Source: Escherichia phage PhaxI
DNA length: 64,000 nucleotides
Sequence record: JN673056
Strand: one strand, 5' to 3'
This document shows, piece after piece, positions 4,756-56,196 of the stretch. Position 1 is the first letter of the stretch, and each line of letters begins with the position of its first letter. The position numbers and the translations under genes are program-made. The notes beneath the pieces were generated by a model. The model ran no database searches. It worked only from the letters and a program-made list of their open reading frames with translations, and was not told the DNA's origin.

Positions 4756-4784
4756 AGTATACGGGGTTTATTGAAGAAGTAAAC
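4756..4784 (-). promoter_or_regulatory. sigma70/T4-early-like promoter GTTTAC-N17-TATACT
   Basis: On minus strand GTTTAC then 17 nt then TATACT, about 45 nt upstream of the ATG at 4706. Confidence 0.4.
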
Positions 4785-5577: not shown

Positions 5578-5895
5578 CTACATGAAATCTTTTACCCATT
5601 CAGGGTCTTCCATAGGAACCCAATTTTCGTATTTGAACATTTTGTACATGTTATAGAACACTCGAATATTATTCCCGTCGTTCATCCGGTTACAAAATCG
5701 TTCATGCCCCCAACCTTCATTCTTCCATAATTGATAGAATTGGTCAGCCATAGCCCAAACGTGTTGTAATGGTTTGGCTCTATTCGTTTGCCAAATGCTC
5801 AGAGAAGAGTTTCTTACTTTATTGGTGGCTGATACCTTTTCCCCAAATCCAGCGGGCTTCTTACGTCCTCTCAGGGAATCTGAAATGGAAGCCAA
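5578..5895 (-). CDS. hypothetical protein; possible C-terminal part of a disrupted homing endonuclease
   Basis: 105-aa ORF; GRKKPAGFGEK segment resembles NUMOD-type DNA-binding motifs; different frame from the ORF at 6027-6425. Confidence 0.3.
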   Translation of the reverse strand: MASISDSLRGRKKPAGFGEKVSATNKVRNSSLSIWQTNRAKPLQHVWAMADQFYQLWKNEGWGHERFCNRMNDGNNIRVFYNMYKMFKYENWVPMEDPEWVKDFM

Positions 5896-6026
5896 CTCTT
5901 CGGGAGTTTTTGTTCTATTCTTATTGGTTGTATTGATTTTGTTTCTTAATTGTTGGTACGCTTCTGTTTGTTGGAAAGCCTTGACACCATCCCTTTGTGC
6001 TTCAGACCAAGTGGTTCCTGTTTTCC

Positions 6027-6425
6027 CTAATTTAATTCTTTCTCTTGTCTCCTTTGTCCTCTTTTTACCTTTGTTTGACGAAGAAATTTTCTGTCGTACC
6101 TTTTCAGAAGGAGTGCCGTATGTGCCCAGATGGACAGGCGTCCCATCTTTACGACAAAGGAAATTGATTCAAACAACCCAGGAAACTTATGAGTCTTTGA
6201 TATTAATAATCCTTCTACGCGTAGAGCATCTTCAGGAGTTTCACATACCATAACAATCTTGGTTTCAAAGAATTCTAACCCATTTTCTTCTATCAAAGAT
6301 TTAACTGGGAAGGAAGAAGTGAAATATGTTGCCCACAAATCATCAGGATGGCAATCTTTGGAATAACGACATCCGTAATAGAAATGTCCTTGTTTAGATT
6401 TTATTCTGTACACATATGGGGTCAT
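6027..6425 (-). CDS. hypothetical protein; possible degenerate GIY-YIG-like N-terminal domain
   Basis: 132-aa ORF; N-terminus YVYRIKSKQGHFYYG loosely resembles the GIY...YIG motif; SD AAAGGAGA upstream. Confidence 0.35.
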   Translation of the reverse strand: MTPYVYRIKSKQGHFYYGCRYSKDCHPDDLWATYFTSSFPVKSLIEENGLEFFETKIVMVCETPEDALRVEGLLISKTHKFPGLFESISFVVKMGRLSIWAHTALLLKRYDRKFLRQTKVKRGQRRQEKELN

Positions 6426-6460
6426 AATGATCTCCTTTCTGAGTAATATAACCCCATATC

Positions 6461-15640: not shown

Positions 15641-17851
15641 TCAATTCTTAAACCACTCATCCATGGTCATCCCTGACATTTCGTTGAAAACTTGAATACC
15701 CCCGAAACCAGGCAAATGCTCAGTTTCGGATGGGGTGTCTCCAACGACTAAACCGCCAAATGGGAATACCTGCTGGGATTCAGTTGAAGACATTCGGTTT
15801 CTCATGTCCTGAGAAATACTTGTAGATGTCAAGTCACTGAACCATTCTTGTTTTACCGCCCATGAATATAAGACCAACGGCATGACACAGTCATCGTGAC
15901 AACCGTCATCGGCTTCATACCGAGCGCCTTTGAACACAAATGTACTGAGTTCATCTATCGTGTCCTGGTCTTCTATCACCAACATTTCTTTCTCAATGAG
16001 CGCTTTCAGGTTAGCACAACCGATAGATCGGACTTTTCTGTTGGTATTGATACCAGGTTCCGGTTTACGTCCACCAATCCGTTTCCCCGTCCCTTTGTTA
16101 TCTGTTGATGTGAATATGATTTCTGGATATTCTATCTCTTGATAAAGAATTGTAATAACCTGACCGCCGACGTCGTTGTTTGTTTCAACAAGGACAGGAC
16201 ATTCCCCGTATTCGGTGCACATATCAGCTATCGTGTATGCATACATCATAGGAGGTATCGTATTATTCCTGTACTTGGCTGCTATGACATGCGGATATTC
16301 AGTTATATCCAGAATTGTTAAGACGGAATAATCTCCTTCCACCCCCTTCCCAGTGTCCGCAATCCCAAAGTAGAGACGTTGTGGGTCGTATTCCTTATAA
16401 ATCTTGGTGAATTCATTAGGTTCCCGATACAACTTGGACGTCATTTTATCTAAGCATTTGGCCGGAATCAATGAACCCACGGAACCACGGAACTTAATGC
16501 CAAATTCTTGATCGAAACGAGCATCCCCCAGACGGGCACGTTGTTTGGTTTCCCAATCTGGATCTTTGGTATATGCCGGAACCTTATACCATGGGACTTC
16601 AGTTAGGTGGAAGTCGTTGTATGGTGGATGGCGTGGATCTGCTTTGGTGACAATATCATAGAACAACCCTCGCTGGCCTTTCGGAGTACTTGTCAAAATA
16701 CAGCGTGATGTATCGGCAGATGCAATGGCTGGGAAAGTTGATTCCCAAAATTCAAAGTCGTTTTCGATAAACGCGACTTCGTCAACATACAGGAGCGATC
16801 GACGACCACGGATGGAGTTCCGAAGACTCGTGGCATAAGCGTATATCTTAGAACCATTCTCAAACTCTATCAGGGTAGAACCAAACTTCTCACAACCCTG
16901 CTGAAGGAAGAATGGAAGGTCTTGGTATGCCTTTCTGATACGGTCAAGAATTTCTATCGCTTGTTTCTCTTTGTTTGCCAGTACTGCGATTTCCTTATCA
17001 GAATGGAACATCGCGTACCAAAGAAGAAACGCCGCCACCACGGTCGTGTTATGACTGAGAAAGCCATTCGTGTAATAACGTTGATCACTAGATTTGACCT
17101 GCAGATCGTACATATGGTGATATTCACCAGTCTGCCAAATCTCACGGATTTCTTCTGGACCTTCGGTCGTCATGATGTATGACCCAGCATTCAGGTCTTT
17201 GGCAAATATCTCCTTCATGTCCGGAGTGAAGAACATATGTTCATCGGCCACGTTAATTCGCCTTCCGGTAACGGTGACAATAACGAATTCCGCATATTTC
17301 TTCGTCTTATGCGCTGCGATAACCGGAACCCAGCCACTATCGGATTGTACAAAGTAACGTTTGCCGAAGCGGCTGTCCACGAACTTGTCATGGTTGCCAA
17401 TGGTATTCAGCGGCACAGCGTGGTTGACGTCCTCGAAGCGGCTGTGAAGCTCCCCTATAGTCAGGAGCAACTCCTCTTGGCTGAGAGTATCGTAAACTGT
17501 GACAAGCGTGTCGCCTTTTACACATTTTCCGGACTGACGAGCCTGGACGACCGCATTAAATCGATAGTCCTGAAAGTCGTGGAACAACTGCTTCTGATAA
17601 TCATGCATATCGAAAAGGATAAAGCCCTTATCGATCGTGGTTATCTTGTAATAGTTGGCGGCGAAGTAGTGTGCATCCATAGAACATTCAACGAATTCGT
17701 CTTCTTGTTCATCTGTCAGCATTAACTCGACTCGAGGAGCACGCACAGAAAGTTTGCGCATGAACGTTTGGTCCATACGCAATTTTACATCGTCTATTTT
17801 GAACCCCGTTTTAATTGGGGCATATTCTATATCACGCTTCTGATACGCCAT
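15641..17851 (-). CDS. gp17: terminase large subunit (gp17-like) containing a mini-intein
   Basis: 736 aa; Walker A QARQSGK is interrupted and resumes with TTVVAAF; overlaps the small terminase gene at its 5' end; SD GAAGGAAG. Confidence 0.85.
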   Translation of the reverse strand: MAYQKRDIEYAPIKTGFKIDDVKLRMDQTFMRKLSVRAPRVELMLTDEQEDEFVECSMDAHYFAANYYKITTIDKGFILFDMHDYQKQLFHDFQDYRFNAVVQARQSGKCVKGDTLVTVYDTLSQEELLLTIGELHSRFEDVNHAVPLNTIGNHDKFVDSRFGKRYFVQSDSGWVPVIAAHKTKKYAEFVIVTVTGRRINVADEHMFFTPDMKEIFAKDLNAGSYIMTTEGPEEIREIWQTGEYHHMYDLQVKSSDQRYYTNGFLSHNTTVVAAFLLWYAMFHSDKEIAVLANKEKQAIEILDRIRKAYQDLPFFLQQGCEKFGSTLIEFENGSKIYAYATSLRNSIRGRRSLLYVDEVAFIENDFEFWESTFPAIASADTSRCILTSTPKGQRGLFYDIVTKADPRHPPYNDFHLTEVPWYKVPAYTKDPDWETKQRARLGDARFDQEFGIKFRGSVGSLIPAKCLDKMTSKLYREPNEFTKIYKEYDPQRLYFGIADTGKGVEGDYSVLTILDITEYPHVIAAKYRNNTIPPMMYAYTIADMCTEYGECPVLVETNNDVGGQVITILYQEIEYPEIIFTSTDNKGTGKRIGGRKPEPGINTNRKVRSIGCANLKALIEKEMLVIEDQDTIDELSTFVFKGARYEADDGCHDDCVMPLVLYSWAVKQEWFSDLTSTSISQDMRNRMSSTESQQVFPFGGLVVGDTPSETEHLPGFGGIQVFNEMSGMTMDEWFKN
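17048..17524 (-). mobile_element. mini-intein (159 aa) inserted in the terminase P-loop
   Basis: Begins CVKGDTLV (intein block A) directly after GK of the Walker A motif; ends YDLQVKSSDQRYYTNGFLSHN followed by extein T; excision would restore QARQSGKTT. Confidence 0.75.
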
Positions 17852-27200: not shown

Positions 27201-27226
27201 AAAAACCCCGCCTAAGCGGGGGTTTT
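27201..27226. terminator. hairpin terminator
   Basis: CCCCGC-CTAA-GCGGGG hairpin flanked by A-run and TTTTG. Confidence 0.55.
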
Positions 27227-27291: not shown

Positions 27292-29535
27292 TTAATCAGT
27301 ATACGCCATCAAGAACATAATAAGCTCATCATAGCGTACTCCGTACCTTACTCCTGCTGGTTTAACTATTACAACTTCTTCTAACGTTTCTGGATTAATG
27401 ATTATTTCAGAAGACGCTTCCCATTCGTCCTTGCACCAGAATGCGTAATCCTCTGGTTTAAGTCCGTGCTTTGTCAGGATAGAACCAACAGTTTGCGCAC
27501 CAACGCCGAAGTGGACTCGTGCAGACTCTTCTCCCTTAATTTCTATAGCGTCAGTAAACTTATAGCGAATAATATTATTGCGAATTTCATTAGCCGCTTC
27601 CCTTTCCGCACTCTCGTTTGTTGCTGGGGTTTTTACCTTCAGTGTTTCATCGGAGGTGCTTATTGTTCCCGTTGCAGCATAGACAACAGACCATCTATGT
27701 GATGTATATCCTAATACGGTCGTATTGTCTGTATCAGGCATAAATCCATTGTATCCACCAATCTTAAGGTCGCCATTTGGGTTTCCGGATGACGTTTTAC
27801 CATCATAACTTCTCAGAGTTACTCCTTTCGTTCCGGCAGTGGTATCTACCAAGATACCAGCGTTGGTAGAACCTAGAAGCTGAATTCCACTATTATCATT
27901 ACGCAAATCCTGCACAGGTGCTTCAAGTACAGTTGCTGTAAATTTCCATTTTGTATCGGAATAAAATTCAGCAGGTGAAGTATCATCACTTTGTATGATT
28001 ACCGCTTGTTTGCCAGATTCTCTTCTACGACACCAGCAATATTTTTCTGGGTTGGATCCCAGTTACTAGAGACAAGCACCCCATCAAATTCTACTAATGA
28101 TTCAAAAGGTTTACCTACTGCACGCGTTGGGGTTTGGGACAAAAATACCCCAGTTCCAATCAAAGAAATTGTTATACGTACCAACATTATCATCTATCTG
28201 ATACCCACGAGTGCATAATTCGCCAAAATAACCATAGAATCGCAAGTTACCAGCAACTTGGGTGTCACTGCTCACCCTTTTAACAACACGTACCGCACAA
28301 GGTACATCAGCAGGCCAAGTGCCTTGTGTGATGTTCTCTGAATGTCCACCGAATACGCGAAGGCTATCTGTACTTTCAATCCAGAAGCTACAGTTACCGG
28401 TTGCATGGTGCGGGTCGTATATATGAATGCGGGTATTATTATTATCGCCACTCTCTGATCGTTCGAAGAAGAAACCACAGTCAACACGTTCGAAGTTAGG
28501 ATTCATAATGGAATGGTAATAAGCACCACTATTGCTACCACCTACAGTTGGGCCAGGTTTGAACTTGATACCAATCTTAACACCACGTGCTCGTGGGTTC
28601 TCCATTACACAGAACTGCTGAGATACACGCACTGTTGTTTGAGTTTCATTTTCTGGTGCAATAGCATAGGCGATAACGTCAGTGTGGTTACTTGGGTTAA
28701 TTACTGTTGGATTTATAACGTGGCAGAAATCATGACTCATGCGAATACAGGTAATGTTATTGGCACCTGCCACAATCACTGTCCCAGTGAAATCCAGATA
28801 GCGAGTTGACATTACATCCTGGGTATATGAACCGTCAAATTTCATTACGAGGCTATTCGTAATGAGATACTTAGCCCCAGGTCTGCCAACCAACTTACCG
28901 AAAGGTATCCCCTCTAGCCACACTAATGCTTCCAACATTGAGGCAGTGTCATTAGTAACCCCATCTCCAATCGCACCAAACTCTTCAAATGATTTTATTG
29001 TAGTAACCCGATGGGCAATTTGGTCAATTGTTGGACCATACTTTGTTAGGTCAGTTATAAGAGACGTAGCCCCAACACTAACCCAAGCACCCACGCCAAT
29101 CCCGCCAGATTCTTCTGGTGTTGAACTGGCAGGTACACTTTTAGGCAATGCCCCATCCCAACGGTATCTACCATCTGTAAAAGTAACCAATTCATTCTTG
29201 GTATTAACAGTTACACCAGTAGAGAATGAACCAGGTAGAGTTACATACTCTTCACGAGTAACAGCTAATGCACCAAGGTCTACATTACCTCCAGAATGAA
29301 CCAATACACCAGCAGTATTAAGACTGACGGCAGTAGTACCAGCACCAAGGTCAGTAGGTAAGGAATAAGCTCTCTGTGTTACTTTATCATAGATGACTTT
29401 ATAGCCACTTAATACAGCACCGATAGAGAAGTAAACAACCTCAGATTGCTTAACTCCAAAGTGACGAGCTACTGCTTGCTTGTTGGTTAAGATTCCAGTT
29501 GAACCTTTTCCACCTTGTGAGAACAGTTCGTTCAT
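27292..29535 (-). pseudogene. tailspike/tail fiber gene with C-terminal intramolecular chaperone-like domain, apparently interrupted by two frameshifts
   Basis: Three ORF pieces: frame A 28111-29535, frame B 27999-28193, frame A again open from 28062 to 27292 with no ATG (track start is GTG at 27915); C-terminal piece has SDETLK and YGVRYDELIMFL, typical of autocleaving chaperone domains. Confidence 0.5.
28111..29535 (-). CDS. tailspike N-terminal/central portion (474-aa ORF)
   Basis: N-terminal domain VYFSIGAVLSGYKVIYDKVTQRAYSLP...YRWDG shared with the 1036-aa tailspike; beta-helix-like repeats. Confidence 0.6.
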   Translation of the reverse strand: MNELFSQGGKGSTGILTNKQAVARHFGVKQSEVVYFSIGAVLSGYKVIYDKVTQRAYSLPTDLGAGTTAVSLNTAGVLVHSGGNVDLGALAVTREEYVTLPGSFSTGVTVNTKNELVTFTDGRYRWDGALPKSVPASSTPEESGGIGVGAWVSVGATSLITDLTKYGPTIDQIAHRVTTIKSFEEFGAIGDGVTNDTASMLEALVWLEGIPFGKLVGRPGAKYLITNSLVMKFDGSYTQDVMSTRYLDFTGTVIVAGANNITCIRMSHDFCHVINPTVINPSNHTDVIAYAIAPENETQTTVRVSQQFCVMENPRARGVKIGIKFKPGPTVGGSNSGAYYHSIMNPNFERVDCGFFFERSESGDNNNTRIHIYDPHHATGNCSFWIESTDSLRVFGGHSENITQGTWPADVPCAVRVVKRVSSDTQVAGNLRFYGYFGELCTRGYQIDDNVGTYNNFFDWNWGIFVPNPNACSR

Positions 29536-29585
29536 ACATACCTCTTTGTTTTTCTAGTGATATCCCTCCGAAGAGGGGTATATTT

Positions 29586-32369
29586 TTAAATAGAAGAATC
29601 CAATATACGGTAACTAATTAACTTAGTAGGGTCTACAGGATTAATCAGGTTGTAGTACCGTGAAGATACATAATCATTCTCAGAAGAGAACATACCAACA
29701 TACACTTTAGCACCTACACCAGAACAGGCATCCCCACCAGCATTGCTATCCGAGAAGAATGTTAATGAGGAAGTTAATCCGAATATAGAATTAAATGGTA
29801 CGGCTAAATAAGCGCCTCGGAATGACCGTCTGATTCTCTTACCCGTCTGAATATTAAGAATACTCCACCAGAAATATCCAGGTTTAGCACCAATAGCTAT
29901 ATGATATGGTACACCACTTTGTAGTTTAAGGTCGTTAGGTAAATCCCCAGATAAAATTTGGGTTGTACCATCGCCCCCCAATAGCAAAGCAATTGTTTGT
30001 TTTCCAGAAGCGTCTATAACTAATTGAAGATGAAGACTGTTGGATGTATCACTAAACCCTGAACCAATGGCCATGAAGTTAAATACTTCAGCTCCAGATA
30101 TGGTAGGTACTACAACAGCAGCCATGGTAATACCTTCTGGACCTGCTGTTCTTGAATACAGTAATTTATCTTTGTTGGCTTGTGATAGTCTCAGACCATT
30201 TACTTGCCCTACAGAAGATGGGACACTTACATAAACAGGTGTAGTGCTAACACCATCAAATGTAGGGGTCTCGTTCATGGTTTGCAAACCAGTCTTGGAA
30301 TAATTAACCAATCCGTTAATGCTCAGGTCGGAATTGGTGGGGTTGATAATATTGTTATCACCAATAAAGTTAATGCCCATATAACCAGTCTCAACCACAC
30401 CATTAATGGTGACACTACAATCATTAGACAGGAACTGAAAATTGCCTGCACTAGAGTTAGCACCTGAACCACTATTCGCGGCATAATTGAGTCCTACGAA
30501 TCCGTTGATAACTGCATCGCTTTTGTTAAATACGATGTTGTAGAAAGTGTTGTTAGCATTGATGCCGTTACGATTGGTGTTCAATCCGTTCATGGAAATT
30601 GAATATGAATCGCTAATCTCAATGCCATTCCCGCCACAATCTTGTACCTCAATACCATTAATAACCATATTCTGGCTGTTATTAATAGTAATGCCTGGGA
30701 ACTGTCCTACTGTACCATAAGGTTGCCAGTTAGCCCAAATGAATTTACCGCCCAATAAATACGAACCATTACCACAACCATCAAGAACCAGACATTGTTT
30801 ACCGCAGGTATTAACCTGGATATTTGTCCAAGTCCAATCAGTAGTAGCACAACGGACACCCACCTGATTGATGTGGTTGACTAAAAGAGAATCTGTAGTA
30901 ACACTAAAGTTACCACTATCAATATTTAACCCATATTCATCAAAACCTGCTATATGGACCTTAGAAATACACAAGTCGCGTCTTGGGTCTGCGGTAGTGT
31001 GGAACGGATAATCGGCTGAGAGACCTGAAGGAGTTTCTACATAGATACCTGTTGTGCCCGCAGTAAATGGCATGCCTTGTTGTGCACCTGTGCCATATAC
31101 CCCAAAGGCGTCTAATACAATAAGGGAGCATGTATCTTTTATGGTAATACAATTCCCAGTAGCAGAAGGCAACTGATGCAACCTTGAGTAATGTAATCCA
31201 GACCCATAAATAGACGACGTATTATATTTTAACTGGATATTGCTAACGTAATGTGCATCAGTTAATTGTGTGGCCTTACCACTATCCACACAAGATTGTA
31301 CTGGAATAGTATCATCATTAGAACCACCCAAAGCACCAAACATGAATGGGTTAACTCTATCAGCATTAACACGTAACCATGCCGCGCCGCCAACAGTTTT
31401 GATCACAGTACCGTTATTATCAGTCTTTCCTGTACCATCAATTAACGCACGGAATACCCCTCCACCAAGAAGAGTACCCGCAGTGTGTTGCTTAAGAATA
31501 ATGCGTTGTCCATCCATAGTGGGTTCAGTATTCCTGAGATCAGCAACAGAATGGCATTCTCCAATATACTTGGCACCATCATTGCGCCCCAGAGTGTTTA
31601 TCACATTAATAAATGAATCCTCTAAAGGCAACAAATCAACCTGCACATCACCTGGGTTGTAATTCAATTTCCCAGCAGATACAGAAGAAATGACAGAACC
31701 ATCAGGAATGGTTGGTAAACCATAACTGGTTTGCGTCGCTATATCATAAACAACTTTCTTCCCATCCAACAAAGATATGGTGTCCGTACTAACGATGACT
31801 TCAGAGTCTTTTACATTAGCAGAACGGGCGATTTCTTGAATACTTCGGTCAAACGCCGGACTGATATTCGGTTGTTTAACAGACATTTCAGCGACTACCC
31901 AAACGCCTGCAGTCAGTGCAGTTTGCAAAGACACTTTCCCTGTCGTGCTGTTATAGGAATATTCAATTTCGGGTGTTTTGTACTCGCCACCGATATAAAG
32001 AGATTGGACACCATAGGATGTGAAATCAGGAGTGAACTCGGTTTCACCTCCCACGGCCTGAAATTTGTATATGCGGATACCTTTGGCTGTATCTTCTGGC
32101 GAAAGAATTTTATCGAATAAGCAATACACAACATCGCCTTTGGACAATGCGCGCCCGAGATTCAACGTATTTCCTTCGATTTCAAAGTTGTCTAACGGAA
32201 CTTGCATACCACCGTTGATTGTGACTACGCCAGTGACAGGATAGAACGGCAAGGAAAGGAAAGTTTCTCCACCAACATTTGATTTATACGTGAAAGGAAT
32301 CTGGTGGGGAGCTGTGATTACGCCGCCGAATAATTCTTCTACATTTCTGGTCATTTGAAAATACCCCAT
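29586..32369 (-). CDS. tailspike protein with right-handed beta-helix-like domain (927 aa)
   Basis: Asn/Gly/Ser-rich repeats such as NGIEISDSYSISMNGLNTNRNGINANN; related anchor segment near residue 170; CTAAATACCCC motif upstream. Confidence 0.65.
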   Translation of the reverse strand: MGYFQMTRNVEELFGGVITAPHQIPFTYKSNVGGETFLSLPFYPVTGVVTINGGMQVPLDNFEIEGNTLNLGRALSKGDVVYCLFDKILSPEDTAKGIRIYKFQAVGGETEFTPDFTSYGVQSLYIGGEYKTPEIEYSYNSTTGKVSLQTALTAGVWVVAEMSVKQPNISPAFDRSIQEIARSANVKDSEVIVSTDTISLLDGKKVVYDIATQTSYGLPTIPDGSVISSVSAGKLNYNPGDVQVDLLPLEDSFINVINTLGRNDGAKYIGECHSVADLRNTEPTMDGQRIILKQHTAGTLLGGGVFRALIDGTGKTDNNGTVIKTVGGAAWLRVNADRVNPFMFGALGGSNDDTIPVQSCVDSGKATQLTDAHYVSNIQLKYNTSSIYGSGLHYSRLHQLPSATGNCITIKDTCSLIVLDAFGVYGTGAQQGMPFTAGTTGIYVETPSGLSADYPFHTTADPRRDLCISKVHIAGFDEYGLNIDSGNFSVTTDSLLVNHINQVGVRCATTDWTWTNIQVNTCGKQCLVLDGCGNGSYLLGGKFIWANWQPYGTVGQFPGITINNSQNMVINGIEVQDCGGNGIEISDSYSISMNGLNTNRNGINANNTFYNIVFNKSDAVINGFVGLNYAANSGSGANSSAGNFQFLSNDCSVTINGVVETGYMGINFIGDNNIINPTNSDLSINGLVNYSKTGLQTMNETPTFDGVSTTPVYVSVPSSVGQVNGLRLSQANKDKLLYSRTAGPEGITMAAVVVPTISGAEVFNFMAIGSGFSDTSNSLHLQLVIDASGKQTIALLLGGDGTTQILSGDLPNDLKLQSGVPYHIAIGAKPGYFWWSILNIQTGKRIRRSFRGAYLAVPFNSIFGLTSSLTFFSDSNAGGDACSGVGAKVYVGMFSSENDYVSSRYYNLINPVDPTKLISYRILDSSI

Positions 32370-32386
32370 AAAGGATTTGCCAATAT

Positions 32387-32397
32387 GGGGTATTTAG
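32387..32397 (-). promoter_or_regulatory. late-promoter-like motif CTAAATACCCC
   Basis: Minus-strand CTAAATACCCC upstream of the 927-aa tailspike gene; embedded in inverted repeat AAATACCCCAT...ATGGGGTATTT. Confidence 0.45.
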
Positions 32398-32459
32398 GCT
32401 GAACTAATAAAATTTATAATAAGATCCCCCCGCTTTTGGCGAGGAGGGATGGTTGTTAA

Positions 32460-35400
32460 TCATATCAATCCGTAAATGACATTGTGTATTGCAATACCAC
32501 CAACAATAGAGGAAACATTGAAATTAATTTCAGCTTTGTAAGCTCCTGGCGGAACGCAATCCACCAAAGCATAAAAGTTGAACGTGTTTCCTACTGGGAT
32601 GTTATATCCTATGGAATCCGCGACAGCATTTCCTTGCTGGTCCAGGAATCTAATTGATGCCAGGGTGGTTGTTGTATTTTTAGCCCAAAAACCAAGTTGA
32701 AAATAACGCCCAGGCTCACAGTCAATGATTGTCTGGGTGAAATTAGCCGCTGCACCCACTGATGGTACGGATAAGACAAAAGAAGTTGAAAACATTAAAT
32801 CATTAGGGACATCATTTCCTACAGTAGCGGTGACAACGCCGGATCCAGTTTGTGACAGCGCCCAGTTAGATATATTATTAAACTGTCCTGAACCGTTACT
32901 AATACTGTTTATATGAGGGCTTACAATGCATCCTAAATCCCAGTTACTTGTGATAAATCCTGCGCGTGGATAGCAACCTCTAGACATTACTTTTTTACTT
33001 AATCCGCCTATCAACTGCCTTGTGGCAAATCCAGTAGCAATCGTTGTATTCCCATAGAGTGGTAGCGAACAATTATTTAGAATAACAACCCCATCCCCGT
33101 TGTTTACAATAGGTACTGTAGAATAATCATTTGGCAACAGTATCGTCGAATCACTGATGCTTAATCGTGAACTACCATCCACAGTAAACCCAACGAAACT
33201 CTGACCTGGTTGATACTCAATGTTACCGTTTGTGAAAACCATAGTTGCGTTATCAGATAACGCGACAACAGGGTCAAAATATCGTGATTTTTTTACTGCT
33301 GGCAGAGAGCAGCTATCGAATATAAATTGACCATTAACAAACGTGAAAGGTCCACCGTTGTCAACCATCCAACAATGATTAAATTTTATAACCTCACCGG
33401 AATTCGCTGGTGAATTGAAAATAACAGAATTTGTAAAACTTCTGGACAACGTACATTTATCAAAAAGAATACGATATGCATTATCAAGAAACTCAATTCC
33501 GGCAGTTGAGATAAACCCGCAATTAGATATTCTTAACTCTGAGACTTCTCCACTGGTAGAACCACCGATCGCCAATTTCCTGGTCCCTTTTCCAACAAAT
33601 GACACTCCAGTCATTAACGCAGTTGCGTTAATTACATCTCTATTGGTGTAATCCGTGTCTGTATTAACAATGGTTAGATAGTAGCCGCCCGTTGCAGATG
33701 CAGATTCTATTAGAGTACATTTATTTTTTCCAATAAGTGCACCTTTTGCTATATCAAAAATAATCGGTGTTGTTATCTCACCAGAAACAGGGACTACACA
33801 GTCAAATCCGACGGCATTTATTTTATTGATGAATATAGCCAAATCTCCGGTTCCTGTATAACCAGCTTCGTACACATCCACCACACCGTTGAATAATTTC
33901 CTTTTCCAAACGACACCATTGCCTTGGAAAGTAACGATATTATCTACCACAGTATCTGAGTTAACAGCCACCATAACACCGCCACCAAGATTAAACCCGT
34001 CAACATACGAATCAAGAATTATAGAATCACCAATTAATCCTGCTATTGATGATAATTCAGAAACTGATGATACGGTTCCTATATAAGATAAGCCATTCGG
34101 TTTATTTAAATTACTTTTCAGAGATGCAACACCAACACTCAACCATGCACCTAAACCAACGCCACCAGATGTTTCAGGTGTTGAGCCAGCATCGACAGTT
34201 TTAGGAAGTGAACCATCCCAGCGATACTTACCGTTCGTATGGGTGAGTAATTCATTTTTAGTATTGATGACAGCACCAGAATCAAATGTCCCAGACAAGG
34301 TAACATACTCTTCACGAGATACAGCTAATGCGCCCAGATCAACACTACCAGCAGAATGCACAAGCACAGCCGAAGAACTAAGGCTGACCGCCGTGGTTCC
34401 AGTCGGTAGCTCTGGAATAAAATATGATCTCTGTGTTACTTTATCATAGATAACTTTATACCCGCTTAACACTGCACCAACACTAAAATAAACAACCTCT
34501 GTATCTTTAACATTGGTTACACGAGCCACTTCCCGCAAAGTATAATCAATTTGATTATAGATGTTTGGCGTTCCATTGATAATTACAACAACTTCATCCT
34601 CTGCATCCAGTTCTTGCGCAAGAGTGATTTTACTGGTTAATGGATCGAATGTGAACCCCAGGTTTTTATACTGGCGACTTCCGTTTATATCAATGGCTGG
34701 AACATCATCGACAACGATGTCTAACGTGATTTCGGTTTCACCACCAATCGCAGAACCACCATTATAGACCCAGGTAATCGTAGAAGAACTAGAACCACCG
34801 CCATTACCCAATTGAATAGGAGTATATTCTATTACCTGCAATTCAGTGCTGGCTGGCAAAGAAGGACTGAAAGTGATTACATTCCCATCTAATGAATATT
34901 TGGATTCCGCAAGACGTTTTCCGTCAGCATACACGTCCACAATTGTTGGTGGAGTATTGAGAGTGACAGCACTTGTTTCAGACGCCAAAATTTGTGTAAA
35001 GATTTCACGACTGTAGACACGGCCTTGACCAAGACCGACGCCGGATGTGATAACCCAACCTTGTTCATGTCCAGACCAAGTGAACGTTGCTGAAACATTA
35101 TCAGTTGTTATAGCCATGTCTTCAGTGGAACCATACAAATTATTTCCAGAAGGAGACACGGTCAATGGGTAAGTGGCAAATTTCCCATAAGCATCACAAA
35201 TAGTAACGGAATCCCCAATACGCGTAGGGGAAGGGAGAACCACTGTAGATGTCCCTGTGGTATTATTAATGAGATATCCACGACCTTCTAACAAATTGCT
35301 AGAGGGAGCGTGAGGGAGCGTTTCCCAGCGTATTCCACCACCCCCCAAAGACAACCAACCACCGTTTTCGTAATAACCTTCAAATTCATCACTATCAGGA

Positions 35401-35570
35401 TTGTAACGCACAGAAGATGGAAGACCTGTAACTTCAGTATCTTCAGGAAATGTCATTACGGCACCAGGGGAATGCTCAATAGTGCCGGAGTTGTTGAAGC
35501 CTTTTATGTTCGAAGACTCAGAAGTTTCTAAACCCAAAGGGAAAAGAGGCTGTGTTGGTTTGTTGGCCAT
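32460..35570 (-). CDS. tailspike protein (1036 aa)
   Basis: Internal domain VYFSVGAVLSGYKVIYDKVTQRSYFIP...YRWDG nearly identical to the N-terminus of the 474-aa ORF; beta-helix-like repeats; CTAAATACCCC motif upstream. Confidence 0.65.
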   Translation of the reverse strand: MANKPTQPLFPLGLETSESSNIKGFNNSGTIEHSPGAVMTFPEDTEVTGLPSSVRYNPDSDEFEGYYENGGWLSLGGGGIRWETLPHAPSSNLLEGRGYLINNTTGTSTVVLPSPTRIGDSVTICDAYGKFATYPLTVSPSGNNLYGSTEDMAITTDNVSATFTWSGHEQGWVITSGVGLGQGRVYSREIFTQILASETSAVTLNTPPTIVDVYADGKRLAESKYSLDGNVITFSPSLPASTELQVIEYTPIQLGNGGGSSSSTITWVYNGGSAIGGETEITLDIVVDDVPAIDINGSRQYKNLGFTFDPLTSKITLAQELDAEDEVVVIINGTPNIYNQIDYTLREVARVTNVKDTEVVYFSVGAVLSGYKVIYDKVTQRSYFIPELPTGTTAVSLSSSAVLVHSAGSVDLGALAVSREEYVTLSGTFDSGAVINTKNELLTHTNGKYRWDGSLPKTVDAGSTPETSGGVGLGAWLSVGVASLKSNLNKPNGLSYIGTVSSVSELSSIAGLIGDSIILDSYVDGFNLGGGVMVAVNSDTVVDNIVTFQGNGVVWKRKLFNGVVDVYEAGYTGTGDLAIFINKINAVGFDCVVPVSGEITTPIIFDIAKGALIGKNKCTLIESASATGGYYLTIVNTDTDYTNRDVINATALMTGVSFVGKGTRKLAIGGSTSGEVSELRISNCGFISTAGIEFLDNAYRILFDKCTLSRSFTNSVIFNSPANSGEVIKFNHCWMVDNGGPFTFVNGQFIFDSCSLPAVKKSRYFDPVVALSDNATMVFTNGNIEYQPGQSFVGFTVDGSSRLSISDSTILLPNDYSTVPIVNNGDGVVILNNCSLPLYGNTTIATGFATRQLIGGLSKKVMSRGCYPRAGFITSNWDLGCIVSPHINSISNGSGQFNNISNWALSQTGSGVVTATVGNDVPNDLMFSTSFVLSVPSVGAAANFTQTIIDCEPGRYFQLGFWAKNTTTTLASIRFLDQQGNAVADSIGYNIPVGNTFNFYALVDCVPPGAYKAEINFNVSSIVGGIAIHNVIYGLI

Positions 35571-36810: not shown

Positions 36811-37638
36811 TTAGCTCCTTGTGCTTTCTAGGAATACAGTAAATCCAGCGGGATGAAAATGCTGACGGAAGACGCGCTCAAACACACCTTCAAAATCAGA
36901 TACGTCGCCTGGGACTCCTATAACATAAGTGTATTCATCATAATAGTAATCATCACGCATCCCTGTCGTGCCGTCACATTCAAAATTTCCGTCCAGACCG
37001 CCTATGTCTTCTTTCGTAAAATAGACGCTGACTGGACAACCAAAATATATCCAAAAGAACAATTCAATCGCTTTCTTTGTTCCACGTATTTTATAGATGT
37101 GTTTCAACAATTTCAACCAACGCGGATGATCCAGAGTTCTCCGTTTCGTTCCTTCGATATAAACAGAGAACGTATCGCCCGTGGCCGTCAATAAAGAATC
37201 CGAACCGACTGGGATAAAATGTCCAAATTCTTGAAATGATTTATCAACAGTTCGTTGGAAACCAAAATCATTATACCAGTCATCTATCTGTTTGTTCTTA
37301 TCTTCTATTGACAGTAGCGGCCTTCCGTCGGAATCTAAAAGTTCTTCGGCATCCAGAGCCATCATGTTCTCAAAGGTACGAACCAAGAATTTATCAGACA
37401 AATAATCCTTGGCCTCTGAGCCTGGCTGCTTAACTGGAGAATCTTCACTCTCAGGATTCATCCAACTAGACGTATCTGCCAGATATGCCAAGATCTCTTC
37501 TTGAGTGAACCCCTGCTGTCTATACAACCAATTGAAGAACGTGTCCATAAATTCTATGAACAGAGGGAAATCATTCTGGTAGAACAACGGAGTTTCATAC
37601 TTAACCCCGTTGTGTCCATTATTAAGATCTTTGGACAT
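36811..37638 (-). CDS. baseplate wedge-associated protein (start uncertain)
   Basis: Directly downstream of and overlapping gp6-like gene; ATG at 37638 with SD AGAGGTG chosen over track start 37671 (TTG). Confidence 0.4.
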   Translation of the reverse strand: MSKDLNNGHNGVKYETPLFYQNDFPLFIEFMDTFFNWLYRQQGFTQEEILAYLADTSSWMNPESEDSPVKQPGSEAKDYLSDKFLVRTFENMMALDAEELLDSDGRPLLSIEDKNKQIDDWYNDFGFQRTVDKSFQEFGHFIPVGSDSLLTATGDTFSVYIEGTKRRTLDHPRWLKLLKHIYKIRGTKKAIELFFWIYFGCPVSVYFTKEDIGGLDGNFECDGTTGMRDDYYYDEYTYVIGVPGDVSDFEGVFERVFRQHFHPAGFTVFLESTRS

Positions 37639-39403
37639 AGCGCACCTCTGGCGTAACAACCACATCACCAATCTTGAATACTTGGTTTTGTGTAGCCTGT
37701 ATGTTCTGGTTCAGTCCATCCGGTAACACGACTATGGTCACCCCTTCAGGGTTATAGTTAGAGACCGTGATCTGCTGAAGGTCTACAACCCCATTTGCAT
37801 AATCCACAACCCCTGTTTTTTGAACTAAAAACTCTTTTGTCGTGTCATTGTTATTCACTTTATACATGTTCAGATCGCCATTATCGTCGCGCATGTAGTA
37901 AGTGAAATCCACCTCGGCAGGAAGCGGTTTGAACCCCGTTATTTTCACAGAACCAGGTTTGATACTTCGTCCATAACTGAATGTGAAACTGTCTAAGGCT
38001 CCATAATCAGGTTTGAAATGGCGTTTATAACCAACTGAAGTAATATTCGAGTTGATAGAACGTTCCATTTTTGTAATTGCTTCCTGCAATATTTCTTTGT
38101 CAAACAATTGGTCAAATCCGCCGAGATTATTTTCACCCCATTTAACGATACTGTTTCCAACAACAACTTTCATCTGTTCTTCAACGTAGACTGTAGAAGT
38201 AGGATCCCAAAATATAGTCGTTGAGACTTGGATATATGTGATCTCGGAATCTACCACTTTGGGGGTGATAGATCCCACATTATACTTGTCCAGAGCAGCA
38301 ACGATATCGGCCTTCTCAGCGTCCGAAAGTGTCTCACCAACAGAAGGTATAACAGCGATGTAAACATAGCCAGAATCAGGAGGAGACAGCGTGTCACCAC
38401 CATATGATTTAGCTCGGGAGACGTTGGAGAATAACCTTTCAGTCAATACACCATAATCTGTTTCTGTAACCGCAGCACCATCAGCCTGATAAGCTAAAGG
38501 AGCCAACCGTTTAGTGTCCTCAATAGATTCCGGATCGTCCCCACCTGCGCTACGTTCGGAAACCAATTCTACATCGACCTGGTTAAACCCGCCTATGGAT
38601 GACGCTGATGACAGGCTTGTGATATCATTCCCATCAGCACCAGAAGTTTCTAAGTATTGAAGGAATATGACGTTCCCATCTTCTACTCGACGCGAAAGAT
38701 AACCATCTCCAAATTCAAACACATACAGACCGTCAATACCCAATTCTACGAAATACAGGTAGGCATATTGGCTCAGATCAAATGGAATGTTGTAACGTTG
38801 ATATGTCGTCGAAACGTCGGAAGACTCTGATTCTTGTACTTGCACGACCATATGATTGATATCGACATTCCCAGAAGGAATCGTGTATGTTGAAATCGCG
38901 CTTCCTTCAACATCATATGTCTTGTACAACCAATTCCCCTGTATCAACTTTACATTATTGAACATGTAATAACCGTCTGCGGTCAACGTTGCCGACACTG
39001 GTTTCTCAACAGTAAAGTTGTAGGAACTGCCGTCTTTTGCCCCAACGAACATCACACGCCGATCCATGATGATCTCATTGGGGGCTGTGCTGGCGTCATA
39101 AGGCGTAACTTTGATGTTGACATACATGTATGCTGCCCGATAGTTGTCAGGCGTGTAGGAAAGAAATGCAGCAGATAAACCGACGTTTGAACGTTGATTT
39201 GCTGTCTTCAAATGGCCTTCACCATTAAGCATGTTTTGCATAAAGGCTATGGCGTTCGCGTCAGATGCCAACAAACGAATAATCGCACTAAGACCAGAAC
39301 CTTCAAAGTCATAATCTTTAAAGGTGGGATCAGCTTTCATTCGCTGTTTAATAATGTATTCAAATGCTCTGACGTCGAGTGAAGGAACTGTTTGCGTGGC
39401 CAT
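37622..39403 (-). CDS. gp6: baseplate wedge protein, T4 gp6-like
   Basis: FKDYDFEGSGLSAIIRLLA matches T4 gp6 FLDYDFEGSRLNVLCDLLA; GGDDPESIEDTKRLAP matches GGGDPEDIERIRELGT; ATG at 39403 with SD GGAG (track start 39454 is TTG). Confidence 0.8.
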   Translation of the reverse strand: MATQTVPSLDVRAFEYIIKQRMKADPTFKDYDFEGSGLSAIIRLLASDANAIAFMQNMLNGEGHLKTANQRSNVGLSAAFLSYTPDNYRAAYMYVNIKVTPYDASTAPNEIIMDRRVMFVGAKDGSSYNFTVEKPVSATLTADGYYMFNNVKLIQGNWLYKTYDVEGSAISTYTIPSGNVDINHMVVQVQESESSDVSTTYQRYNIPFDLSQYAYLYFVELGIDGLYVFEFGDGYLSRRVEDGNVIFLQYLETSGADGNDITSLSSASSIGGFNQVDVELVSERSAGGDDPESIEDTKRLAPLAYQADGAAVTETDYGVLTERLFSNVSRAKSYGGDTLSPPDSGYVYIAVIPSVGETLSDAEKADIVAALDKYNVGSITPKVVDSEITYIQVSTTIFWDPTSTVYVEEQMKVVVGNSIVKWGENNLGGFDQLFDKEILQEAITKMERSINSNITSVGYKRHFKPDYGALDSFTFSYGRSIKPGSVKITGFKPLPAEVDFTYYMRDDNGDLNMYKVNNNDTTKEFLVQKTGVVDYANGVVDLQQITVSNYNPEGVTIVVLPDGLNQNIQATQNQVFKIGDVVVTPEVRYVQRS

Positions 39404-39766: not shown

Positions 39767-40336
39767 ATGCACATTAACACAGCAATCATGAAACACATTA
39801 TTCCTTTATTGGCAAAATACGAAGGGGAACGTGCCACGAAAATCCCTTTTGGAACAATCACAGATGAAGTGAAACGCCTGACGGGTAAAAGTATCAATTT
39901 CCGTCGCGTTGTTGAATCTGCGTTAGAGTTGGCCCGTTCTGATTTACAAAATCCAACATTTTCATTTAATATTGACGTAACTTCTTCACTTCGACAAGAA
40001 TTGGAAGAATCATCACAAGCGCGGCGCGATCGTTTCCGTCATTTATATGTTCGTAACGAATTTTCCGAAGGTCGTGTTGGTATGAAACTGGAGTCTATTC
40101 GTTCTGATATTTGCTTCACTGTCAACTATGTTTTAGAGCCAGAGAGCCAGCGCATTTATTTTGGCGCGATTATCGGTTTCTATGGGAACTATATTAATGG
40201 TTGGGCAGAACGTGTTGGAATAAAAGAAACCCAGAACAATCATTCCACACCTTCTACCCATTATATGACGCATGAAGCTGCTGGCGAATATGTTTACCTT
40301 CTGCGTCGTGTTGTGAAGTTAGAAGTGTTAAAATAA
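39767..40336 (+). CDS. hypothetical protein
   Basis: 189-aa ORF diverging from the structural block. Confidence 0.5.
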   Translation: MHINTAIMKHIIPLLAKYEGERATKIPFGTITDEVKRLTGKSINFRRVVESALELARSDLQNPTFSFNIDVTSSLRQELEESSQARRDRFRHLYVRNEFSEGRVGMKLESIRSDICFTVNYVLEPESQRIYFGAIIGFYGNYINGWAERVGIKETQNNHSTPSTHYMTHEAAGEYVYLLRRVVKLEVLK

Positions 40337-40540: not shown

Positions 40541-42811
40541 CTCAAAGGGGAGAGGACTTTTCAAATTAGCTGGGCTGCGGTAAAGTATTAAACACGAGGG
40601 AAATAACACAGTGGGAGTCGGGTTTGCAGCCCAAAACCAGTTAACCCTATTCTCAGGGCTGTTGATAGAGCGTAATAGCACCCTCGCTGGTGTCAGTGGA
40701 CGCACTGACGTCGAGACGAAACTCCTGTGTAGCGTGATAGCTCAGAAAACGAGAGCACCCGTGCAGTCGACACACATATAAGGGAGTCGGGGCGCTAATC
40801 TCCATCACGCGACAACATTATGAATCTCATAGAGGGTTCATAATGTTGCGTCAAAGGGCAACAAGAGGATTCCTGTTGGTTGAATTAACTTGATTCATAG
40901 TTCTGCTGATCTTCCCGGATTCAGAAGAACACCGACAGGACGAGGCCGGATGCGTAAGTTCCGGCAAATCGATGGTGAGGTGGTGCATTGATGACACGGG
41001 GTAGCGCTCAGAAGTGTGGTTCGATTCCGCACCCTCGCCAACAAAAATAAAAGGTTTTATCAATAACGGGTTACAAAGTATAGTTAACTCACTGAACGGC
41101 AAGCTGTTTGAGTCCTGGCCACTCATAGCGATGTGAGACCAAGACAGGTAGGTTTAGGACTCAAACAGGTTTTCGTTCTCGTTGCTTGCGACTTTGCGGG
41201 TTTTTAGAAACTGACCAAGCAAATAACTGCTAATGATTCCGAAGTTCTGATGGCGGCGTAATAGCCTATAAGTCAGTGAGGTCTTCCGATTCCTCATAAC
41301 AAAATTCGGCGCACTAAAATAGGCGGGAGGGTGTGATTAATAAGCTCCCGCCGAACAATGAGCGGAGCGTGTACTTAATAGGTCGATGGGAGCAGACTAC
41401 TTCTGAGAAATCAGGAGCGTACATGAGAAGGTTCGAGTCCTTCCTCCAATCCCAAAGCCGTTATATCTGACTGTCCAAAGGGGATAAGCTCCTGAGTAAG
41501 CAGAGGTGGGTTGCCTAAGTCAGATGGGATGTAAGGTCAGCGCTGGCTAAGCATTTGGGTTCGACTCCCTAAAGCGGCTCCACATCTTTGAGGGCATTCC
41601 GCGTCAGACGCGAGACTGTATGGAGTTTCAGGAGAAAGGCAACTTAAATCCGAGGCAGTAATGCCCTATGAAATATCGGAGCCTGTTGTACACTGAGTGC
41701 CCTCAAAGATGTGTCTCACAGCGCATCAGTTTGCAGTTATGCAAGCTTCAATAAGTTAAAACGCGCCTCGGGCGTTATGGGATAAAGCCTTAAACAGTGG
41801 AATCCCCAGGGCTAGCAATCCCTGTCAAAGAAGTAGCCGTGTGGGGGTTTGCCCCCACAACGCAAATCGAAGTTCTTTGGGTATATCTTTTAACCCTCAA
41901 GGTCTGTACACAGAAGTGGCCGTCCCATGAGTAAGTTAGGCGATATACAACATGTTGGGTCGAACCTGTTAAGCCCAGAGAACTTCGATTTGCGTACTTG
42001 AGAGAGCGTTGTATGAAATAGGGCAATGCCTTGCAGACCTCGACGCCTACACATTCTAGACACTGGTGGGCGCTGGCGAAGATCTCAATATAAGCTGGTC
42101 ATCAAGGGTAGCTCCCTGACCGGACGAACAATGAGAGGCCGAACTAAGGGGAAACCCGAGACAGGCGCAGTATTTTCAAGTTCGCAAAATGAAGAGCATT
42201 AAAGAACTCGCAAAGGACCTGAAAATTGGTATCCCTGGCTTGTACCACTGAGTGTTCTTCATCTTTGGGTGATTCTATGTTGTCGGGCTATCAACCCATG
42301 CTTGCTGGAGCAACCAGCGGCTCTGAATCAACCAGCCAGCCTCGTTTGGTCCGAGCGTTAGAGGACAAGTTGCTTCTGTATGGAAGCTGCGAGTTGTAAC
42401 ATTTGGTTGCAACTTTGATGGCTCTGGATTTTATAAACCATGTCTATGGGTGACGCGGGATCTTTAGTACCAGAGCCATCAAAGTTGTGTCCAACCCGAT
42501 CTTGCAAGCCCGTATCCCTGTATGGTCAAGACTTGCAAGTGGAAAGCCCTGGAAAAATAAACGCCTGTGGTGAGGCTACGGTGCAAGCCAAAGACCCACA
42601 GAAGCGCGTTGCCGTGAGGCGCACAAACAGGCATGCATGAACTGATCATGCACAAACGGGATAAATGGTTGAGAGACCTTGGTTGGTCACACAATAAATT
42701 ATGGGGCGATAGTTTAAGGGACAGCTGTCCGGACAGCGAGTCCCCAGAGAGAACAGGCTGGCGGCCAAACCAGCAAGGAGAGGTGAAAATCCTCAGACCC
42801 CGCCAAATTTT
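40541..42811 (+). ncRNA. ORF-poor structured region with tRNA 3'-half-like modules and long hairpins; candidate large structured RNA(s) or degenerate tRNA-like genes
   Basis: No credible ORF on either strand for about 2.3 kb; T-arm+acceptor+CCA modules near 41015-41040, 41427-41454, 41555-41582, 42779-42805; GAAA-capped 7-bp helix at 41400-41417; 12-18 bp perfect inverted repeats. Confidence 0.35.
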
Positions 42812-54766: not shown

Positions 54767-55108
54767 ATGAAACTCAATAAGATTCTTCTGGTGTGTGCTC
54801 TGGCTTTCTCTACCACTGCATGCTCTACCCTTCTGGACGTTGCGTCTACTGTTGACCTCGATGCGCCGACGTTCACCAATCAGCAAGCGGTGAATAAGAT
54901 GGAAGACACCATCAAAGCACATGCAGCTTTGGACAACACCACTCCTGGTCCGTTGCAAACTGTTTGCAATTATGATGATTCCATCCAGGAAGATGAAACC
55001 TATCACTGCACCACTTACGTGAAGGAATCTTCTGTGGTTCTGTATGCAGATTGCACAGAGAGCATGCACGCAACTGGTTATGATCAAGTGGAGAAGTCTG
55101 ATGAATAA
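54767..55108 (+). CDS. putative secreted/lipoprotein
   Basis: MKLNKILLVCALAFSTTACS signal-like N-terminus from ATG at 54767. Confidence 0.45.
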   Translation: MKLNKILLVCALAFSTTACSTLLDVASTVDLDAPTFTNQQAVNKMEDTIKAHAALDNTTPGPLQTVCNYDDSIQEDETYHCTTYVKESSVVLYADCTESMHATGYDQVEKSDE

Positions 55109-55883: not shown

Positions 55884-56196
55884 GGAGGACATCGTGCAAG
55901 AACAATCCAAGTTTGGGAACCCAGACAAGCGTTCAGGTGATAGCGATATGGATGGCGTTATTATCCATGTGAACAACTTCATTCGTAAACAAACCACACC
56001 CACTTCCGTTGGTGCGGCGCTGGAGTTAAAGCGTGTTCTGATAGAGAACGGTATGGCACCAGATGACGATGAAATTTTCTATAACTTTGAAGACCAGTAT
56101 AAAGTGAAGTTTGTAGAAAACGAACGTCCACAGGTTGCTGTTTTCTGGTCTCCCTGGTTGGGCGGTGTGAGCTGGCGTATTGAGGAAGATGCATAA
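55858..56196 (+). CDS. hypothetical protein
   Basis: 112-aa ORF; start uncertain. Confidence 0.35.
   Translation: MAIINTSVEEDIVQEQSKFGNPDKRSGDSDMDGVIIHVNNFIRKQTTPTSVGAALELKRVLIENGMAPDDDEIFYNFEDQYKVKFVENERPQVAVFWSPWLGGVSWRIEEDA

Follow-up and report, generated by a model that had tools for sequence, protein, structure and literature searches.

The tailspike gene TSP1 of Escherichia phage PhaxI is split in its sequence record by two single-nucleotide indels, and we consider it likely, from comparative sequence evidence, that both are base-calling or consensus errors and that the phage itself carries an intact gene encoding a 747-aa protein. As deposited, the gene is not one continuous open reading frame (ORF); with both indels repaired, by the removal of one G and the addition of one T, it becomes a single 747-aa ORF that is colinear with all relatives. 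The gene lies in the 64-kb window analysed here (the whole stretch of 64,000 nt from record JN673056), which belongs to a Kuttervirus (Ackermannviridae) and, over its first 25 kb, shares 93-95% identity with phages 4HA11, SS3/SS9, SJ3 and others. Its neighbourhood on the minus strand is as follows.

35570-32460, minus strand: TSP4, 1036 aa
32369-29586, minus strand: TSP2, 927 aa
29535-27292, minus strand: TSP1 as a whole unit (2244 nt including the stop codon), flanked by TSP2 and vriC and closing the TSP cluster
27206-27221, minus strand: terminator-like hairpin (CCCCGC-TTAG-GCGGGG) followed by a T run
27134-22296, minus strand: vriC, the next gene after TSP1

The order TSP4, TSP2, the present gene and vriC identifies the present gene as TSP1. 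TSP3 is absent from the cluster, which holds three TSP genes, in agreement with PMC8432352, which gives three as the number in some Kutterviruses and cites the PhaxI paper among its sources for this. The hairpin stands 3′ of the whole 2244-nt unit, and a scan of the minus strand of TSP1 revealed no further terminator-like site within the gene. The reading frames of the deposited gene, and the two lesions that separate them, are these.

28111-29535, minus strand: ATG-initiated ORF of 474 aa, ending in TAA at 28113-28111
27999-28193, minus strand: second-frame ORF of 64 aa, real coding sequence in its middle and out of frame at both ends
27292-28062, minus strand: first frame reopened, residues ~502-747 (C-terminal stalk and chaperone), stop codon at 27294-27292
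27292-27915, minus strand: ORF of 207 aa, with the GTG at 27915 as its nominal start, in fact a valine codon within the gene, in mid-stalk
28148-28151, minus strand: lesion 1, an extra G (GGGG, with GGG in SS9, two metagenomic contigs and phage 38)
28033-28147, minus strand: inter-lesion segment of 39 codons, read in the second frame as VFLSQTPTRAVGKPFESLVEFDGVLVSSNWDPTQKNIAG
28031-28034, minus strand: lesion 2, a missing T beside 28032 (GGTG, with GGTTG in the three closest relatives and GGCTG in phage 38)

A sequence-only reading of the locus had described this arrangement of frames, and every one of its layout coordinates was reproduced on the minus strand. The 474-aa ORF is 100% identical to AEW24389.1/YP_007002807.1, annotated ‘tail protein [Escherichia phage PhaxI]’; its residues 1-461 are genuine TSP1, and its final 13 residues (GIFVPNPNACSR and the stop) are out-of-frame read-through. 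The open frames overlap at 28193-28111 and again at 28062-27999, and the reopened first frame contains no ATG ahead of the 207-aa ORF. The peptides TISTSDETLKVK and YGVRYDELIMFLMAYTD, quoted in the sequence-only reading, are present in this downstream frame.

Intact orthologues locate the lesions. The same gene is present in the Salmonella phages SS9, SS3 and SeKF_64 (YP_009883287.1, QEI24108.1 and WWQ71446.1) as one intact coding sequence of 2244 nt and 747 aa, to which PhaxI TSP1 is 96.1% identical at the nucleotide level in a single BLAST piece. These genes resemble that of PhaxI in length, in position between TSP2 and vriC and in domain order, and differ from it by an uninterrupted ORF. 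Pairwise alignment with SS9 gives 81 substitutions, mostly synonymous, and just two gaps of 1 nt each in 2244 nt, placed at 28148-28151 and beside 28032 and lying 118 nt apart with a net change of zero. The proposal that this is one tailspike gene broken by two frameshifts within about 130 nt, with alignment to intact orthologues as the suggested check, is thus confirmed both by orthologues of equal length and by the number and spacing of the gaps. The exact base of lesion 1 cannot be fixed, because the adjoining codon (AAC/AGT) differs as well. After this lesion the true coding sequence continues in the second frame, and lesion 2 brings it back to the first, which in three-frame translation has five stop codons between the two sites. 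The inter-lesion peptide is conserved and aligns in 27 homologues of 33-80% overall identity. In the repaired frame, the junctions read ...FFDWNWVFLSQTPTR and ...NIAGCR, and residues 462-627 include the peptides AVGKPFESLVEFDGVLVSSNWDPTQK and QAVIIQSDDTSPAEFYSDTK.

Two Logan metagenomic contigs encoding spikes 90% and 77% identical, together with phage 38, have the SS9 reading at each of the two positions; among the five sequences compared, PhaxI alone carries the indels. Nor did searches for the break in other collections return an independent copy of it. The sole other member of the protein cluster containing the 474-aa product is the intact SS9 protein, and truncation in independent isolates was not found in that collection; an exact look-up of the 474-aa and 207-aa products in a contig index gave no match; and in IMG/VR neither an exact DNA search with a 36-mer containing the G4 run nor a protein-guided scan for relatives gave any. 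The literature consulted on PhaxI and on Ackermannviridae tail spikes, the scope of which did not extend to the PhaxI genome paper (PMID 23676434), yielded no mention of a TSP1 frameshift.

The repaired protein has the organization of a complete tailspike, with the following recognizable parts.

29071-29265, minus strand: Tail_spike_N (PF18668), residues 91-155, 85.7 bits
28156-28998, minus strand: β-helix receptor-binding/depolymerase body, residues ~180-460, from a homologue model and from PF12708 in relatives
27295-27654, minus strand: intramolecular chaperone, Peptidase_S74-like, residues 628-747
27654-27652, minus strand: codon of Ser628, an invariant residue
27639-27637, minus strand: codon of Lys633, an invariant residue

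Residues 1-211 form an N-terminal anchor that includes Tail_spike_N and is homologous to TSP1 of phage CBA120 (PDB 4OJ5, E = 1.3e-82). For the remainder we used an AlphaFold model of a 79%-identical homologue (P0007) rather than of the PhaxI protein; as a monomer of moderate overall confidence (pLDDT 68), it served for rough domain boundaries only. The model shows short-strand repeats at high pLDDT over residues ~180-450 and a confident chaperone at 640-747, and the segments 461-493 and 593-627, of low confidence, are probably trimer-dependent. In fold comparison it matches the CBA120 tailspikes TSP3, TSP1 and TSP4 best, and also the chaperones 3GW6, 3GUD and 4UW8, and its chaperone superposes on 3GUD with a TM-score of 0.71 (normalized to the target). 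The pectate-lyase-like family PF12708 is matched in 10 of 28 family members. The 474-aa product of the deposited sequence would end right at the end of this β-helix, without stalk or chaperone.

Assignment of the downstream part to the intramolecular chaperones, as the sequence-only reading had proposed, is upheld by matches to solved structures and by retention of the Ser/Lys pair. Searches with the chaperone region returned PDB entries 7Y5S (5.7e-22), 4UW8 (7.3e-12), 3GW6 (1.9e-11) and 3GUD (6.3e-9), and residues ~553-742 match the C termini of solved chaperone-bearing spikes and fibres, 9VVR among them. The Pfam family PF13884 scores 19.9 bits in PhaxI (E = 9.4e-4), just below the gathering cutoff of 22, and is matched at E <= 0.01 by 27 of 28 aligned relatives, with a best value of 2.4e-16. 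Residues S628, D629, K633, H675, G677, A680 and Q681 are invariant in 28 aligned sequences, and the HFGVGAQ core is conserved. In alignments with the solved chaperones, the S-D-x-x-x-K motif falls on their cleavage-site serine and catalytic lysine: TSDETLK of PhaxI corresponds to TADARLK in T5 pb1 and to TANGERK in the 3GW6 construct, whose alanine at the serine position reflects the S911A mutant. It had also been argued that such a domain makes sense only when fused to a spike. Consistent with this, the best eight PHROG matches of the downstream piece, and 11 of 12 overall, map to the C-terminal end of a spike or fibre profile 630-1400 positions long, and the chaperone is fused to the spike in 27 of 27 relatives and in the repaired PhaxI sequence, being detached only as deposited.

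Taken together, these features suggest a protein of four parts: an N-terminal anchor, a β-helix O-antigen-binding/depolymerase body, a short trimeric stalk and a C-terminal chaperone. The anchor would be the counterpart of the CBA120 region that docks TSP1 onto TSP4. The chaperone would aid folding of the trimer and would then cleave itself off at Ser628 by means of Lys633. That such cleavage occurs, and that the two indels are errors, is what we infer from these comparisons.

Several observations bear on whether the break exists in the phage or in the record. The alternative to error that we take most seriously, and still hold to be rather unlikely, is that the indels are real and TSP1 was inactivated very recently, leaving as its sole product the 474-aa protein (the anchor and most of the β-helix); this product probably could not trimerize, and TSP2 (O157) and TSP4 (O78) would be left working. 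The deposited sequence does itself read as broken, and the rest of the window is almost entirely free of broken genes (each of the ~70 set against SS9 keeps to a single frame), which speaks against errors scattered at random and indicates that the record is not globally error-ridden. A loss of TSP1 would also be biologically plausible: PhaxI is assigned the subtypes TSP2-1 (O157) and TSP4-2 (O78) (PMC8432352) and was isolated on E. coli O157:H7, which TSP2 recognizes, so TSP1 would be dispensable in culture, and propagation on O157:H7 only would exert no selection for it. Against a real break, however, stands the fact that one lesion would suffice and there are two; since the five stops between them make that frame unreadable, the second lesion gives nothing and selection cannot account for it. 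By the Nei-Gojobori method, the comparison of PhaxI with SS9 gives a dN/dS of 0.081 for the part upstream of the lesions and of 0.083 for the downstream part, which has 20 synonymous and 6 non-synonymous changes. The downstream part shows no relaxation and was under full purifying selection over essentially all of the divergence time; any genuine break must then be very recent. The gene shows no decay besides the two indels, the Ser/Lys pair and the other invariant chaperone residues being kept, and neither lesion occurs in any other isolate compared.

The same record contains further private indel clusters that are difficult to reconcile with biology. In 260 nt at 40645-40905, PhaxI lacks ~26 single bases, nearly all by run-shortening (CCCC to CCC, GG to G, TT to T), that are present in SS9, 4HA11, SFP10 and SJ3, the latter three being near-identical there; PhaxI covers this region in 701 nt, compared with 726-727 nt in all of the best among 247 matching phage records, and no RNA family was found in the intact version of this 40.6-40.9 kb stretch. 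At 16803-16828, three indels convert the large-terminase motif ATSSDSIRGRSVSLLYVDE to ATSLRNSIRGRRSLLYVDE, and none of 288 matching phage records, Dickeya and Klebsiella phages included, exceeds 85.3% identity to the PhaxI version. Three dropped bases at 55059-55069 and three more at 55918 garble two small proteins. Clusters of this kind, in sequence that does not vary elsewhere, have the look of a locally poor consensus, and a biological origin is hard to credit, which makes artefact the simpler reading of the TSP1 indels as well. Outside the 260-nt stretch, PhaxI has 23 private small indels, a count similar to the 26 of phage 4HA11 and one that speaks against a globally error-prone record, and the remaining coding-region clusters are all net in-frame, as would be equally expected from selection acting on real mutations. 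Breaks in recognizable genes may have been fixed before deposition, and errors that were in-frame, non-coding or within the TSP1 module missed; the receptor-binding module may have had no close database homologue at that time, leaving its errors unnoticed. Two further explanations would accept the deposited sequence and restore function by other means. Programmed recoding, with a +1 ribosomal shift near 28150 and a -1 shift near 28033 that together yield full-length TSP1, appears exceedingly improbable; the frame overlaps leave room for both shifts and are its sole support. No gene with two shifts in opposite directions is known to us. The shifts lack conservation, since the orthologues in SS9, the two Logan contigs and phage 38 keep their frame through both positions. 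The overlap 28062-27999 contains neither a long homopolymer nor an X XXY YYZ heptamer, the nearest candidate, CAG AAA AAT, failing at the first base; a long A or T run for transcriptional slippage is likewise absent, and the first site has just the G4 run. On these grounds we rejected recoding. Separate translation of a short spike and a 207-aa chaperone acting in trans, which is very unlikely, could draw on the GTG-start ORF at 27915. Alignment with homologues shows, however, that this GTG encodes the conserved internal valine of APVQDL, and inspection of the sequence by eye revealed no Shine-Dalgarno motif ahead of it; moreover, the ORF starts mid-stalk, the domain is fused in every relative, its PHROG matches lie with one exception at profile C termini, and chaperones of this class act in cis and are removed once folded (Schwarzer et al. 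2007; Schulz et al. 2010, both cited by PMC8217332). Independent translation was accordingly rejected. Sequence alone does not decide between a real and an artefactual break. The set of outcomes considered originally, namely a pseudogene, a mis-assembly or two indel errors, is therefore supported as a whole, with errors made the likelier by the other private clusters in the record.

The practical value of the error reading lies in curation: TSP1 is probably under-reported in the PhaxI reference record, several sites of which need resequencing. If the indels are errors, host-range predictions based on spike subtype would miss a functional third spike of PhaxI, whose receptor-binding body is common to E. 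coli and Citrobacter prophage spikes. [quoted passage not shown] A real break would show a phage with several spikes losing one that it does not use, which is relevant to PhaxI biocontrol and conceptually not new.

With either outcome for the two indels, comparison with known systems places PhaxI TSP1 in the Kuttervirus TSP1 family, and it is no new kind of system; chaperone-bearing spikes in Ackermannviridae have been described before (PMC11721090). Its closest structural reference at the N terminus is CBA120 TSP1 (orf210, PDB 4OJ5), to which its first 211 residues are homologous and with which it shares the position in the locus. In CBA120, TSP1 uses its TD1 domain to dock onto XD3 of TSP4 (PMC8432352). 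Past residue ~211, however, CBA120 TSP1 has no sequence similarity to PhaxI, and the receptor-binding body of PhaxI differs; PhaxI TSP1 is absent from the CBA120 TSP1-1 subtype as listed in PMC8432352. No CBA120 chain is among the PDB matches to the chaperone region, the CBA120 match being limited to N-terminal residues.

At its C terminus, PhaxI TSP1 is homologous over residues ~595-742 (E 1e-9 to 1e-12) to the chaperones of endosialidase K1F (3GW6), the T5 L-shaped fibre protein pb1 (4UW8) and the neck appendage protein 3GUD, which PMC8217332 assigns to phage GA-1. In contrast to these MEROPS/Pfam Peptidase_S74 chaperones, the PhaxI domain has a sub-threshold Pfam score and is detached from its spike by frameshift in the record. 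The body and chaperone together are 65-81% identical to those of P22-type (Head_binding, PF09008) E. coli prophage tailspikes and of Citrobacter freundii prophage spikes (P0016, P0017, P0019, P0020; P0004, P0005, P0015). Whereas the N-terminal adaptor of the prophage spikes is a podovirus head-binding domain, that of PhaxI consists of the tandem domains of Kutterviruses. Such differing adaptors on a shared body and chaperone represent module exchange between spike families.

Indels confined to the window among the compared relatives extend beyond the tailspike 1 gene (TSP1). One such cluster lies in the large terminase gene:

15644-17851, minus strand, large terminase gene

The cluster (+2, +1 and -3 at 16803-16828) converts the conserved large-terminase motif ATSSDSIRGRSVSLLYVDE into ATSLRNSIRGRRSLLYVDE, and the window's version of this stretch reaches an identity of at most 85.3% in all 288 matching phage records, which come from several Ackermannviridae genera. 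The terminase cluster at 16803-16828, like the TSP1 indels, is probably a sequence error.

A series of dropped bases was found outside the coding regions:

40645-40905, non-coding stretch with dropped bases, between a gp005-like ORF (39767-40333) and the tRNA cluster

Comparison with relatives showed that roughly 26 single bases are missing here, nearly all of them as shortened runs. The missing bases are present in the related phages SS9, 4HA11, SFP10 and SJ3, the last three of which are near-identical among themselves across the counterpart of this stretch. The surrounding span measures 701 nt in the window, whereas it measures 726–727 nt in all the best matching phage records. An Rfam search of the intact version of the stretch returned no match. 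The stretch at 40645-40905 looks like a low-quality part of the source assembly.

Two small genes each carry three dropped bases that are private to the window and leave the net frame intact. At 55059-55069 (AA to A, AA to A and CC to C), the product of the gene at 54767-55105 changes from CTEEQCTATGY to CTESMHATGY; at 55918 (GGGGAAACCCC to GGGAACCC), that of the gene at 55894-56193 changes from FGETPDKR to FGNPDKR.

Other irregularities were observed elsewhere in the window. A private 27-nt in-frame deletion lies at 37426, within the gene at 36811-37671, and a private 22-nt insertion at 4766 (GTTTATTGAAGAAGTAAACCCC), which adjoins GGGG, could form a hairpin. At 5581-6428, a homologue of SS9 gp178 (215 aa) aligns in two different frames, separated by a gap and with identities of only 51% and 71%; the gene here may have diverged or been rearranged, or this may be a further frame problem.

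The record of Salmonella phage 38 looks likewise full of frameshifts: the annotation splits its orthologous spike region (NC_029042.1, 27981-34838) into ten short CDSs, and the aligned stretch contains at least one additional 1-nt gap.

The receptor-binding body and chaperone of TSP1 also occur, at 65–81% identity, in homologous spike proteins found by protein search (P0004, P0005 and P0015-P0020). A P22-type head-binding domain (PF09008) precedes the TSP1-like body in Escherichia coli spikes, one of them source-named 'phage tailspike protein', and in metagenomic contigs; in Citrobacter freundii, the body follows other N termini. This pairing of one body with differing N termini suggests that myovirus and podovirus spikes have exchanged modules, and gives a hint that the TSP1 receptor is an E. 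coli or Citrobacter O-antigen.

The cluster to which TSP1 belongs comprises three genes only:

27292-35570, tailspike cluster (TSP4, TSP2 and TSP1)
32460-35570, TSP4, 1036 aa
29586-32369, TSP2, 927 aa

TSP3 is absent from this cluster; in contrast to the three tailspike genes of the window, 4HA11 has four.
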